This document shows, in pieces, positions 4,409 to 45,534 of a stretch of DNA of 62,490 nucleotides. Within the stretch, counting starts at the first letter, position 1. Every line of letters begins with the position of its first letter. This stretch comes from Candidatus Aquitaenariimonas noxiae (lineage in GTDB: Bacteria > Omnitrophota > Gorgyraeia > Aquitaenariimonadales > Aquitaenariimonadaceae), in contig PEWV01000013.1 of NCBI GenBank assembly GCA_002780005.1, positions 1 through 62,490 on the forward strand, read 5' to 3'. The position numbers and the translations under genes were made by a program. The notes beneath the pieces are model-generated. The model was not told where the DNA came from. It saw only the letters and a program-made list of their open reading frames with translations, and searched no databases.

Positions 4409-4743
4409 AATCTTAACTTATTTTTCTTTTATCAAGCATCTCTAACCCTCCCGCATTGGCTTTCCGATATGCCCACGCGGCATAAAATCAAAGTATCATT
4501 TTTTAGTAAAGTCTAATGTGAAATATGAAACTTTCGGAGTTATTATAGCACATTTTCTGTAGCATACATAGCAATGATGCAAAGCAATCTTAACGGATTT
4601 CTCTATTCGCAAAAACACACAAAAATGGTTGTTTAAAAAAATAGGCTTGTGTATAATGATATCCAGCATCAAAGGAGCGCGAGAAGGTGAAAGCTATATA
4701 TTCACATTAATTTCCTAGGGTTTGAAAAAAAGGAGAATAATGT

Positions 4744-5706
4744 ATGAAGATAGTGGAAAGCTGCCCGGTTTGCGGAAATAGCAATATAAAATGCTTATAC
4801 AAAAAGACTTTTTTATACCCTGGTAATGGCATTCAGTCAAATCTGCTCGATATAAATTATGAACGGTTAAGGATATTATTTGATTATATGCTGAAAGGAA
4901 CCAAATCAGCTTGTTTTGCATTCATAATATGCAAAAATTGCGGGTTTGTCTTTCTTAATCCACGCTTTGAAGACAGGGAAATGGAGCTTAAATATGATGC
5001 CATCAGGCAGCTTGGGTTGGTGCAGGCAAGATTATCGTTACTATCTGTGCGAAGTTTAAAAAGGCGTTCAGAAATTATTTATAATACCATAACAAAATAC
5101 AAAAACAAGAAAGTCGCTGGATTTCGAATACTCGATTTTGGGGGCGGAGGCGGTTATAATCTGCGCTTATTTGCAAAAAATAACCTATGTTATATAGTGG
5201 ACTATGAGAAGCCCCATCTTCAGGGAGATGTTAAATATTTATGCCAGACGGCAGATGAAATTACACAAGAGATAAAATTTGATATAATTTTGTGTTGTCA
5301 CGTTCTCGAACATGTAGCTGATCCTGTAAAAATATTGCAGAAGTTAGCAAGCCACCTTGTTCCAAATGGAATTTTATATATTGAAATACCATTTGAATGC
5401 TTTCCTAGTAAGTTTAAAAATCTACAAAACCCGCTGACGCACATCAACTTTTTTTCGCCATCTTCACTGTTATATCTACTATCAAGCTGTGGTTTTGGCG
5501 TAAAAAAGAGGTGTGGTGTTTGGAAATGGTTAATTCAAAATCAGCACTTTTGGCTAAGCGTAATTAGCGAGAAAAATGGGCAGGGGCTTCCTAAATACGG
5601 CGCGGGCTACAGGGATACGGTTCGCTGTATGAGTAATCCCTTGTTATCTTTATGTGCTAGATTGGGCGATTTCAAAGGAGGGATTTACAGTAATCCAATT
5701 TACTAG
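4744..5706 (+). CDS. Class I SAM-dependent methyltransferase with N-terminal Zn-binding CxxC pairs
   Basis: CPVC...CKNC, ILDFGGGGG, HVLEHV, HINFFS. Confidence 0.9.
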   Translation: MKIVESCPVCGNSNIKCLYKKTFLYPGNGIQSNLLDINYERLRILFDYMLKGTKSACFAFIICKNCGFVFLNPRFEDREMELKYDAIRQLGLVQARLSLLSVRSLKRRSEIIYNTITKYKNKKVAGFRILDFGGGGGYNLRLFAKNNLCYIVDYEKPHLQGDVKYLCQTADEITQEIKFDIILCCHVLEHVADPVKILQKLASHLVPNGILYIEIPFECFPSKFKNLQNPLTHINFFSPSSLLYLLSSCGFGVKKRCGVWKWLIQNQHFWLSVISEKNGQGLPKYGAGYRDTVRCMSNPLLSLCARLGDFKGGIYSNPIY

Positions 5707-16119: not shown

Positions 16120-16151
16120 TTTAATTTTGCTAAAAGTGGTTACACGAATAT

Positions 16152-16227
16152 GCTGGCGTAGCTCAATTGGTAGAGCAGGGCTTTCGTAAAGCTCAGGTCA
16201 TCAGTTCAAGTCTGATCGCCAGCTCCA
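16152..16227 (+). tRNA. tRNA-Thr(CGT)
   Basis: Acceptor GCTGGCG/CGCCAGC, anticodon arm GGGCT-TTCGTAA-AGCTC, T arm ATCAG-TTCAAGT-CTGAT, encoded CCA. Confidence 0.96.
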
Positions 16228-16238
16228 TAGTTCAAAAA

Positions 16239-16349
16239 GCTGGGGGGTGGTTTCCCGCCTATGCTAGACTTTAAACATGCATGAGCGGGACCCCGCGCAC
16301 GAGTTGCAAAAAGGAAGCGTAGGCGGGGCAACTCCACTCGCCAGCTCCA
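16239..16349 (+). repeat. Palindromic element ending in a 12-bp duplicate of the tRNA-Thr 3' end; homologous in inverted orientation to 62304-62383
   Basis: TCGCCAGCTCCA at 16216-16227 and 16338-16349; arms CCCGCCTATGCT/AGCGTAGGCGGG; core CATGCATGAGCGGGACCCCGC. Confidence 0.8.
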
Positions 16350-16362
16350 CTATTCCACAAAA

Positions 16363-21175: not shown

Positions 21176-22716
<1,541 letters not shown>

Positions 22717-22724
22717 AAAAAGAG

Positions 22725-22753
22725 TTGCATCACGCAATATATAGTGTTATAAT
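22725..22753 (+). promoter_or_regulatory. Sigma70-type promoter upstream of the structured region and tRNA-fMet
   Basis: TTGCAT-17 bp-TATAAT with TG extension. Confidence 0.65.
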
Positions 22754-22754
22754 G

Positions 22755-22927
22755 ACACTGGTTACACACAGGGGGATGTAAAATTTAGAAGCTTAGTTCT
22801 TTGATTATAAATACCTTTTAGGAGAGGATGAATATTAAGAAGGAAAACGACGTTTTCTTTCTTAAGAAAAACAAGGTCACTAAGACCTTTGTAGCCAGTG
22901 TGCACATAGTACACCCCCTAAAGGTAT
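22755..22927 (+). ncRNA. Candidate structured non-coding RNA of unknown family with a possible double pseudoknot
   Basis: Complementary pairs 22755-66/22890-901 (12 bp), 22770-80/22910-19, 22792-803/22872-84, 22811-18/22920-27 and hairpin 22835-65 (14 bp); wobble pairs are G-U on the + strand. Confidence 0.5.
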
Positions 22928-22970
22928 CGTATAAATTAACAGATTATTCAGTAGCACCGACGTTTTTCAC

Positions 22971-23047
22971 TGCGGGGTGGAGCAGCCTGGTAGCTCGTCA
23001 GGCTCATAACCTGAAGGCCGTCCGTTCGAATCGGACCCCCGCTACCA
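22971..23047 (+). tRNA. Initiator tRNA-fMet(CAT)
   Basis: Cloverleaf with anticodon loop CTCATAA, mismatched 1:72 pair (T:T), acceptor GCGGGG/CCCCGC, encoded CCA. Confidence 0.95.
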
Positions 23048-23109
23048 ATTTTTTATTTTATTATATTGTAAGCTATATAACGTGAACCAAATGAAGGAGG
23101 TGGAAAACA

Positions 23110-23511
23110 ATGACATTTGAAAGGATATTGAAAGAAAAAAAGGTTTATTTTGTAATGTTACTCTTGACATTGTGGTTTAGCTGTATCCCTTCCCCGTCAT
23201 TTGCTCTTCCGGTCAGCTCATGCGAGCAAGGAGTAAACCTCTCGCAAGATAAGGAAATTATAAATTCATTTCTCGAGCAAGAGCTGGTGGTTAAAAAATT
23301 AACCGACATGGGCCTATCTAAAGAGGAAATAAGTTCTCGATTAGATAAATTATCAGACACGCAAATTCATGCCTTAGCCATGAAGGTGGAGAGAATAAAG
23401 GCCGGCGGCGATGGTTGGGTGATACTGATCGTAATTATAGCACTTATCGCTGTAATCTTCTTCCTTCTGACACATGAAGTGACGGTAGAGCGCAAGGATA
23501 CCCGTAGGTAG
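23110..23511 (+). CDS. PA2779 family protein (signal peptide, conserved helical core, AGG motif, C-terminal TM)
   Basis: L..MGLS.EE...RL..LSD.QIH.LA......AGGDG followed by a hydrophobic helix; adjacent to a C39 peptidase. Confidence 0.8.
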   Translation: MTFERILKEKKVYFVMLLLTLWFSCIPSPSFALPVSSCEQGVNLSQDKEIINSFLEQELVVKKLTDMGLSKEEISSRLDKLSDTQIHALAMKVERIKAGGDGWVILIVIIALIAVIFFLLTHEVTVERKDTRR

Positions 23512-35413: not shown

Positions 35414-35492
35414 CTTTAGAAAAAGGCTAACTGCTGGGGACAGCAGGGCGCAAAGCTTTCAGGTCTAGAACAGACGGTTGGGCTGCCTAAAG
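35414..35492 (+). promoter_or_regulatory. c-di-GMP-I (GEMM) riboswitch aptamer
   Basis: P1 CTTTAG/CTAAAG; GGCTAA-CTGCTG-GGGA-CAGCAG (GNRA-capped P2); GGCGCAAAGC core; P3 with GTCT/AGAC; 3' GCTGCC. Confidence 0.85.
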
Positions 35493-35533: not shown

Positions 35534-36232
35534 ATGAAAGGGGTTGGAATGAGGCCTTCTGTGCGAAAGACGATAATTATCGACTGGATCGTGTTGATTA
35601 CATATTATATGTTGATAATCTCAACATTATATGTGTTCCCAAAATTATGGGATTTTTGTATTAGTGTCTTCGGAACCCCATTCCATTTGGTTGCTGACCT
35701 CGCTGTTTTTGTAATATTCTTTATATTTTTTGTAGCTGTAGTATATGATGACATATTTCATAAAAGCGTGAAAGATCTGATCCGTTATGCGTGGTTAATT
35801 ATCCTGGGATGGGCCATGCTAATAACGTTAAAAAGAATGCCTTTTCTTATGGAAGAAGTATGCATCCCCGAATACGCCTTAGTTTGTTATATTTCTTTTA
35901 GGGTGGTTTATCATTATGTTAAGACAAGGGCCCTGTATCCGATTCTGTTTCTTATAGTTGTAGGCTTTGCTTGCCTGGAAGAAGGGCTGCAATTCTTTAT
36001 TCCTACAAGATTTTTTAACCCGATGGATATTGTGAAAGATGTCTGGGGCGGAATATTGATAGTATTAGTAATAAATTTAGTGATACAACCTGAGTTTAAA
36101 AGCGGTGTAATCGAAAAGACTATTAGACGGATTGTAAAGAGAACAAAGTTCAGTACAGAAGATATTTTGGTAAATATAAGAGATTTCTGGTTTGATCTAG
36201 GGACCAAAATCAACGATTTCCTATTTTCTTAG
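35534..36232 (+). CDS. VanZ-like integral membrane protein
   Basis: Multiple TM segments; EYAL..., EEGLQFFIPTRFF..MDIVKD resembles the VanZ DE..Q...P.R..D motif. Confidence 0.7.
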   Translation: MKGVGMRPSVRKTIIIDWIVLITYYMLIISTLYVFPKLWDFCISVFGTPFHLVADLAVFVIFFIFFVAVVYDDIFHKSVKDLIRYAWLIILGWAMLITLKRMPFLMEEVCIPEYALVCYISFRVVYHYVKTRALYPILFLIVVGFACLEEGLQFFIPTRFFNPMDIVKDVWGGILIVLVINLVIQPEFKSGVIEKTIRRIVKRTKFSTEDILVNIRDFWFDLGTKINDFLFS

Positions 36233-44855: not shown

Positions 44856-45368
44856 ATGGAAATTACAGAGGTAAGGCTTTTCTTAAAAGACGGTAATGAT
44901 AAGAAACTCAAGGCATATGCAACCATTACAATTGACAATGCCTTTGTAGTTCGGAACGTAAAAGTTATTGAAGGTAACAAGGGTTTATTTGTTGCCATGC
45001 CTTCAAGGAAAATAAAAGAATCTTGCCCCAAATGTAATTTTAAAAATACAGTAAGGAGCAAATTCTGCAATCAATGCGGTAGCGTTCTGCCGCCTCCGAA
45101 AAAAATTGAGACAACAAACCCGAAAAACAGAGAATCAGAGCATAAGGATATCGCTCATCCGATTTCTTTTGAGTGTAGGGATTATATCCAAAAGAAGGTT
45201 TTGGAAGCTTACGATATTGAGAAAAAGAAGCAAGGATCTCAACCCGTATCTCAACCCGTATCTGGGCCCGGAACGCAACCAAGCAGCATTTCCAGAGAAA
45301 AGCCCAAATTTGAAACTCCCGGGGCAGCAAGTCCCAATGCGGATATGGAAGGGGATCTGGCGCTCTAA
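44856..45368 (+). CDS. spoVG: SpoVG family protein with Zn-ribbon insertion and low-complexity tail
   Basis: MEITEVR, GLFVAMPSRK, CPKC...CNQC, DIAHPI. Confidence 0.92.
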   Translation: MEITEVRLFLKDGNDKKLKAYATITIDNAFVVRNVKVIEGNKGLFVAMPSRKIKESCPKCNFKNTVRSKFCNQCGSVLPPPKKIETTNPKNRESEHKDIAHPISFECRDYIQKKVLEAYDIEKKKQGSQPVSQPVSGPGTQPSSISREKPKFETPGAASPNADMEGDLAL

Positions 45369-45459
45369 ACGGGATTACTCTCTAGCTATAAATTAGCTTA
45401 AAGAGGAGCTTTTCTATTTGAAATTACAGTCAAAGACTGGCGACTGGTAACTTTTAGAA

Positions 45460-45534
45460 TGCCCGGTGGTGTAATTGGTAACACACCAGCCTTTGGAGCT
45501 GAGGTTCCTGGTTCGAGCCCAGGCTGGGCAGCCA
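45460..45534 (+). tRNA. tRNA-Gln(TTG)
   Basis: Acceptor TGCCCGG/CTGGGCA, anticodon loop CTTTGGA, T arm CCTGG-TTCGAGC-CCAGG, encoded CCA. Confidence 0.95.

Follow-up and report, generated by a model that had tools for sequence, protein, structure and literature searches.

Bacterial tRNA leaders are usually short and are regarded as disposable. The 3′ external transcribed spacer (ETS) of leuZ in E. coli is a tRNA spacer that acts as an RNA itself. Here, we analyzed a 62,490-nt stretch of DNA from Candidatus Aquitaenariimonas noxiae (hereafter the window, meaning the whole stretch), in which a candidate tRNA 5′ leader lies between ftsB and a tRNA-Met gene, and compared it with a counterpart in one other genome labelled Candidatus Omnitrophota (locus L004). 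Like the leuZ spacer, the leader belongs to a tRNA precursor but not to the mature tRNA, would be freed by processing, and possibly has a function of its own. It differs from that spacer in lying 5′ rather than 3′ of the tRNA, in its length (~210–270 nt), in its repeated hairpin modules, and in having no sequence or Rfam relation to it.

Three other kinds of described element resemble the leader in part. Csr/Rsm RNAs (CsrB, RsmY, RsmZ) share with it a variable number of hairpins with GGA-containing, purine-rich sites between them, but the leader described here is joined to a tRNA gene, belongs to another phylum, matches none of these families in Rfam, and carries many of its GGA sites in stems. 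Leaders of stable-RNA operons, processed by RNase III or RNase P, likewise connect a strong-looking promoter to a stable RNA gene and are comparable in their perfect 14–16-bp stems. The difference is that the conserved pairing found here ends 2–3 nt from the RNase P site; we know of no other tRNA leader with such a pairing. Imperfect palindromes of about 40–60 nt, arranged in tandem in L004, also recall REP/BIME palindromes and ToxI-like arrays. Unlike REP/BIME elements or MITEs, the module has no dispersed copies in the window or in the 80 loci searched with a covariance model (R1, below). Unlike a ToxI-like type III antitoxin, it has no ToxN/Abi-type gene next to it: the one module of the window is followed by tRNA-Met and the DUF6627 and Peptidase_C39_2/TPR genes, and the L004 array precedes tRNA-Ser and tRNA-Arg.

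RESULTS

Genomic context of the leader

The leader sits on the plus strand between the end of a −10 box (22753) and the start of tRNA-Met (22971), with no plus-strand terminator-like site between the two. The genes around it are all on the plus strand as well, with purN, an FAD oxidoreductase gene, eno, and ftsB upstream, and DUF6627, a C39-like TPR protein gene (Peptidase_C39_2/TPR), and purB downstream of the tRNA. The stop codon of ftsB is 8 nt 5′ of the −35 box and 254 nt from the tRNA. The features of the region are as follows.

22447–22716, plus strand: ftsB/divIC, upstream gene of 89 aa (ORF; Pfam DivIC PF04977, E = 1.1e-17)
22725–22753, plus strand: candidate promoter read from the sequence, with −35 TTGCAT (22725–30), a 17-nt spacer, and extended −10 TGtTATAAT (22745–53)
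22755–22766, plus strand: 5′ strand of helix P1, ACACTGGTTACA (inverted repeat; 12 bp, one G-U)
22770–80 and 22910–19: proposed pseudoknot helix PK1, AGGGGGATGTA with TACACCCCCT (6 + 4 bp, bulged A; duplex −15.3 kcal/mol)
22792–97 with 22799–803 and 22872–76 with 22879–84, plus strand: proposed inner stem P2, CTTAGT and CTTTG against CAAGG and ACTAAG
22811–22834, plus strand: conserved purine-rich, Shine-Dalgarno-like linker AUACCUUUUAGGAGAGGAUGAAUA (aligned with the L004 linkers; inside the match of covariance model R2)
22811–18 and 22920–27: proposed pseudoknot helix PK2, ATACCTTT with AAAGGTAT (8/8)
22835–49 and 22851–65, plus strand: module hairpin, an inverted repeat of 14 bp (one G-U) with a 3-nt loop GAC closed by C-G
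22866–22872, plus strand: GAAAAAC, proposed 5′ strand of helix P0, directly 3′ of the hairpin (unpaired in the MFE structure)
22873–22889, plus strand: local hairpin AAGGUC/GACCUU (22873–78 with 22884–89; MFE), a competitor of P2
22890–22901, plus strand: 3′ strand of P1, TGTAGCCAGTGT (inverted repeat)
22902–22961, plus strand: non-conserved 3′ part of the leader, which holds the tail TACACCCCCT-AAAGGTAT (22910–27)
22962–22968, plus strand: GUUUUUC, proposed 3′ strand of P0, at tRNA positions −9 to −3
22971–23047, plus strand: tRNA-Met (CAT), followed by a T-run (ARAGORN; Rfam tRNA, 59.5 bits)

An earlier note on this DNA had placed the region between a strong promoter and an initiator tRNA. 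The extended −10 element is indeed perfect (TG at 22745–46, TATAAT at 22748–53), but TTGCAT matches the −35 consensus at only 3/6 positions, and for this reason the site is missing from the list produced by the promoter scan. In L004 and in a further locus, L020 (10/12), the tool did list promoters in the corresponding position behind ftsB. Positions 1 and 72 of the tRNA-Met are unpaired, which is the mark of initiator tRNAs, and the downstream gene is accordingly initiator-like, as had been proposed. We also considered whether the region is the intrinsic terminator of the eno–ftsB operon and rejected this reading: a scan of 22300–23300 found no terminator-like site on the plus strand, and the 14-bp hairpin is trailed by GAAAAAC. 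The sole terminator-like site in that interval is on the minus strand and within the shuffle expectation of 0.9.

Predicted folding of the region

The earlier note had described five mutually compatible helices between 22755 and 22927, two of them formed by the 3′ tail and crossing P1. All of the sequence segments that it named are present, at the same or nearly the same positions. Only two of the helices, P1 and the 14-bp hairpin at 22835–22865, are above chance. No helix except the hairpin persists in all constructs, and the hairpin does so with a mean pair probability of 0.975. The duplex energy of P1 was not equalled in any of 2,000 shuffles of the downstream sequence, so its complementarity stands. 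Its predicted formation does not: the probability is 0.68 only in the construct 22755–22927 and drops to ≤0.02 when the 5′ end is set at 22760 or the 3′ end at 22970. The note had itself cautioned that P1 lies next to the −10 box. The 5′ strand begins 2 nt past that box, and only ~22760–66 of it is therefore likely to be transcribed. Its second caution, an alternative hairpin AAGGTC/GACCTT, was also well placed. This local hairpin dominates with a probability of 0.84–0.89, and the inner stem P2, which it displaces, reaches ≤0.03.

The two pseudoknot pairings fared no better. The best duplex between tail and interior was matched by 159 of 2,000 sequences when the interior was shuffled and by 98 of 2,000 when both parts were shuffled, and PK2 was matched by 158 of 2,000, so that 5–8% of shuffles reach such pairings. 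PK1 and PK2 cross each other, besides crossing P1. In the full leader, the two halves of PK2 form an ordinary nested helix with a predicted probability of 0.78. The five-helix model is thus one of several mutually exclusive folds.

As a whole, the 173-nt fold is better than expected on the plus strand (z = −3.0; 1/200 shuffles as good), and the minus strand folds equally well (z = −2.98). The note had favored the plus strand on the ground that all wobble pairs are G-U on that strand. This argument is weak: it draws on three wobble pairs of the window's copy, and the aligned hairpins of the family show six G-U cells against nine A-C cells; wobbles do not settle the strand.

A compact noncoding RNA, ribozyme, or riboswitch built from P1, P2, the hairpin, and two tail pseudoknots would account for the existence of all five complementarities, for a P1 that no shuffle equals, for the z-score of the fold, and for the lack of a known family. 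The pairing statistics above speak against such an architecture, as do the loss of P1 once the transcript ends are changed and the equal z-score of the minus strand. In addition, the four helices other than the hairpin have no recognizable counterpart in L004, the one homolog found, where the sequence before the tRNA corresponding to 22902–22961 of the window is about 14 nt long. There is no indication of a ribozyme or a riboswitch, and we regard this reading as very improbable.

Relatives of the locus

The protein set searched contains hardly any relatives of FtsB; among 5.8 billion proteins, three were found, namely the window's own, one that is 99% identical, and one that is 41% identical. 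Relatives were for this reason anchored on enolase. The enolase-anchored genome scan yielded at least 600 stretches, 599 of which were confirmed by tblastn, and the best 80 were used as loci. The best enolase matches among these are 71–72% identical, and most of the top ones are labelled Candidatus Omnitrophota (L002, L003, L004, and L049; also L020). The comparison set consists of relatives at ≤72% enolase identity, and helices outside the module were seen against these only. Among the best 80 of at least 600 stretches, 72 loci have at least 600 nt downstream of eno. A plus-strand tRNA lies within 1.5 kb in seven of these 72, and it is tRNA-Met in six of the seven. Distances from the ftsB stop codon to the tRNA in four relatives are as follows.

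L001: 52 nt
L027: 40 nt
L025: about 53 nt (by eye)
L004: 318 nt

The short gaps of L001, L027, and L025 are filled by promoter-like sequence (by eye), from which it follows that the long leader is an addition to an old ftsB–promoter–tRNA arrangement. Two relatives carry other sequences at this place. L049 has a 129-aa ORF (5261–5650) between ftsB and tRNA-fMet, which from inspection by eye we take to resemble an S1 RNA-binding domain; the same order of divIC, yabR, and tRNA-Met occurs in Bacillus subtilis. A pseudogene of this S1-domain gene was considered as the source of the window's leader, and tblastn found no remnant of it in the region. In L020, an ORF of about 90 codons, presumably GIY-YIG-like, is situated between the post-ftsB promoter and tRNA-fMet (4668–5055). 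The eno–ftsB interval of L020 (4100–4330) contains repeated palindromic blocks (by eye).

A conserved module in a second genome

Enolase and FtsB of L004 are 71% and 49% identical to those of the window, respectively. Directly after its ftsB is a promoter (TTGAAA-17-TATAAT with TG, 11/12), followed by hairpins over about 270 nt (MFE −93.1 kcal/mol, z = −6.3, 0/200 shuffles) and then by tRNA-Ser(GGA) and tRNA-Arg. The hairpins are three to four tandem modules with a period of 42–47 nt. The window has one module (22811–22872, 62 nt) that consists of a purine-rich linker, the 14-bp hairpin with a C-NNN-G loop, and GAAAAAC. Common to both genomes are the linker CCUUUUAGGA(R)GGAUGA..., a hairpin of 13–16 bp whose 5′ arm is rich in purines and whose loop is C-NNN-G, and GAAAAAC after the last module. 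The window module is identical to module U3 of L004 in 46/64 columns and to U4 in 47/67; modules U1 and U2 are degenerate. The first 8 nt of the window's linker are also the 5′ half of PK2.

A plain sequence search with 22717–22970 against the 80 loci gave weak matches (blastn E ≥ 0.041; for L004, nhmmer E = 0.27 and blastn E = 0.14). Because such a search barely detects the homology, an independent test was made with a covariance model (R2) built from three L004 modules alone and searched over the window and the 79 loci other than L004 (777,538 bases). Its best match is the window at 22811–22872 on the plus strand (37.4 bits, E = 2.7e-5), with a runner-up of 21.2 bits (E = 0.24); E-values of this model and of R1 are rough because calibration was short. 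In an alignment of five copies of the hairpin, both partners vary in 9 of 15 pairs and none of 500 shuffles reaches the observed values; these changes are not independent events because four of the five copies are paralogs from one genome. In the same alignment, 80% of cells pair, compared with 43%–64% when the partners are slid.

Model R1, built from the five copies, was applied to 785,211 bases, which comprise the window and 80 loci. Its only plus-strand hits with E < 0.01 were four of the five source copies (U2 is not returned as a separate hit), and other hits in the window have E ≥ 6.5. Within the 62-kb window and the 79 other loci, the module is locus-specific and not a dispersed repeat, and it is known from two genomes only, that of the window and that of L004. 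Further degenerate modules were considered at 22770–22805 and 22911–22968 and rejected, with unfiltered R1 scores of 1.9 and 0.1 bits; with filters off, no extra module appears in 22700–23000. A shared closing helix was also rejected. The closing helix of L004 is within chance (775/2,000 shuffles), and we therefore claim no conserved P1. Besides the module, there is a direct repeat of 19/23 bases between the 3′ end of ftsB (22677–22699, encoding ...EGEVVYKV...) and the linker (22820–22842). Such a repeat may arise by chance where the sequence is rich in purines, or it may reflect the origin of the module.

A functionless insertion, such as a decaying tandem or palindromic repeat or a small mobile-element remnant that is tolerated because RNase P removes it, has some appeal at a site that takes other inserts (the ORFs of L020 and L049), and both the degeneracy of U1 and U2 and the resemblance of P1 to terminal inverted repeats fit such an origin. 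It is harder to reconcile with a module that is kept at the same locus despite FtsB identity of 49% and with hairpin pairing that survives changes on both sides. Moreover, neither the 62-kb window nor L004 holds further copies, phage and plasmid collections hold no match, and no target-site duplication is visible beside P1. We consider a functionless insertion rather improbable.

It is also conceivable that no RNA structure is involved, and that either an 85-codon ORF (22828–23085) or a 50-codon ORF on the minus strand represents a gene, or the palindrome serves as a DNA operator through which a repressor acts on the tRNA promoter. A AGGAGAGG box does precede the ATG of the 85-codon ORF. This ORF spans the whole tRNA-Met gene and has no Pfam family, and we took it to be spurious; the corresponding start context in L004 yields frames of three codons only. 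The hairpin is a near-perfect DNA palindrome, as an operator might be, but its arms change together and yet stay complementary, unlike those of a protein operator, and 80 nt separate it from the −10 box upstream. Both versions of this explanation are hardly credible.

Purine-rich sites in the linker

The linker bears on another explanation, in which the RNA is a trans-acting sponge of the Csr/Rsm type whose GGA or Shine-Dalgarno-like sites would sequester 30S subunits or a CsrA-like protein, with the tRNA providing a promoter and a 3′ end made by RNase P. UAGGAG/AGGAUG-type sites occur in the conserved linker, which is partly unpaired between hairpins in the MFE structure of L004. The number of modules varies by genome (one versus three to four), as in sponge RNAs, and AGGA occurs eight times in L004 versus 2.6 expected (0/1,000 shuffles). 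The window does not repeat this excess, with four GGA versus 3.5 expected (464/1,000 shuffles), and many GGA sites are inside stems and not in loops. The Csr/Rsm families of Rfam have no match in the window leader or in L004, and a CsrA or Hfq domain is found in none of the 66 ORFs of the 62-kb window. To our knowledge, CsrA-titrating RNAs have been described in Gammaproteobacteria only. A sponge of this type, as the sole explanation of the region, is unlikely.

A complementary segment beside the tRNA

The GAAAAAC that follows the hairpin is complementary to the GUUUUUC at 22962–68, which is also part of the repeat CGACGTTTT. In the window, this complementarity (P0) spans 7 bp, stops 2 nt short of the tRNA, and was equalled by 116 of 20,000 random 12-mers. 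In L004, GAAAAACU (6821–28), located after the last hairpin, is complementary to AGUUUUUC (6858–65) over 8 bp (29/20,000 random 12-mers as good), and the complement ends 3 nt before tRNA-Ser. The motif is absent from the ten other tRNA upstream flanks inspected. Judged from the sequences, GAAAAAC/GUUUUUC is the putative long-range pairing conserved in both genomes; the complementarity was noticed after the fact, and since P0 is identical in sequence in the two genomes, it has no covariation.

The helices crossed by P0 would be P1 in the window and, in L004, the closing helices. Should P0 form together with them, the result would be a pseudoknot, different from the one described in the earlier note. 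Nested folding gives P0 a probability of 0.0 in the window and 0.08–0.43 in L004; these values are low because P0 crosses or competes with other helices, and nested folding cannot judge it.

Searches for known families

At the gathering threshold, Rfam 15 matched only three tRNAs in the whole window and, elsewhere in it, a c-di-GMP-I riboswitch. With a cutoff of E ≤ 10, the interval 22600–23150 gave, besides the tRNA, eight hits of 13.8–21.3 bits versus thresholds of 50–82. In the corresponding part of L004 (6500–7000), the tRNA alone passes the threshold. Searches of phage and plasmid collections gave no match to the leader region, and a phage or plasmid origin of the leader was rejected for lack of a match in either collection. 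A search of the literature for noncoding RNA of Omnitrophota found no description of this RNA. The RNA element is undescribed and has no match in Rfam, in agreement with the earlier note, which had recognized no known family. The c-di-GMP-I riboswitch lies at 35415–35490 on the plus strand (RF01051, 50 bits versus a threshold of 35), and just downstream of it is a 232-aa ORF (35534–36229) without a Pfam family.

Other tRNA loci of the window

Observations were also made at the two other tRNA genes of the window. The sequence GTGGTTACAC (16136–16145, plus strand) is 7 nt before tRNA-Thr, and the similar CTGGTTACAC (22758–22767, plus strand) makes up most of the 5′ strand of P1. These are the only two matches in the window at ≤1 mismatch; at ≤2 mismatches, the same pattern is not enriched (18 found versus 24.9 expected). 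The two may represent a motif that tRNA genes share in their start region or leader. Positions 16329–16360 on the plus strand repeat the 3′ end of tRNA-Thr (16207–16238), which is 122 nt upstream (32 nt, 72% identical, shared core TCGCCAGCTCCA). To the left of tRNA-Thr, the G+C content is lower (0.32–0.38 over 1–18 kb, versus 0.38–0.45 for most of the rest), and the genes there include a glycosyltransferase, a sulfatase, a heparinase, and a methyltransferase. The repeat resembles the remnant of an attachment site at an island boundary. At 44856–45534, a SpoVG-family gene and tRNA-Gln are followed by genes with glmU and prs domains (hexapeptide/NTP transferase and ribose-phosphate pyrophosphokinase). 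The gene order SpoVG, tRNA-Gln, glmU, and prs is familiar from Firmicutes.

DISCUSSION

The explanation that we favor, and to which we give about an even chance, is that the region is a lineage-specific, modular, and structured plus-strand 5′ leader, or external transcribed spacer, of a tRNA transcription unit. With the same evenly balanced confidence, we place the leader at roughly 22760–22970 (~210 nt) and suppose that it is carried by a subgroup of Candidatus Omnitrophota between an old post-ftsB promoter and the tRNA. The proposal of the earlier note thus survives in its general form, as an undescribed structured RNA on the plus strand of the interval between promoter and tRNA-fMet, with a core that is kept at the same position in L004. 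Its five-helix architecture does not. The note had also suggested a leader that controls the tRNA, and the region may be one. The downstream tRNAs differ between the two genomes (fMet versus Ser and Arg), so a function specific to the initiator tRNA is unlikely.

What the sequences show is the layout of the locus, the homology of the module, compensatory changes in the hairpin, and the P0 complementarity; beyond this, we infer the following course of events. The extended −10 promoter would drive transcription of the leader and the tRNA together, and the hairpin would fold first. GAAAAAC could then pair with leader positions −9 to −3, and the P0 helix, stacked on the hairpin, would sit at the foot of the acceptor stem, which is the RNase P site. 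There it might delay or order 5′ maturation. Cutting by RNase P would free a stable leader RNA protected by its hairpin, and the exposed GGA-rich linker of the released leader may bind a protein or the 30S subunit.

A bolder version of the structured leader joins these steps into a new, Omnitrophota-specific family of modular RNAs inside tRNA precursors, in which the hairpin and the P0 clamp gate RNase P and the leader, once cut, serves as a sponge for a protein or for ribosomal subunits through its Shine-Dalgarno-like sites. We put this forward as a speculative idea that is probably not correct in full. If true, it would join cis-acting control of tRNA supply to a trans-acting sponge.

In an uncultured phylum that has hardly been studied, a structured insert of 200–300 nt has been kept at the same place in two distant members. 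If P0 works as proposed, either the maturation of a tRNA would be gated by its own leader or a regulatory RNA would arise as a by-product of tRNA processing. The module is a candidate RNA motif for Omnitrophota, with two representatives.
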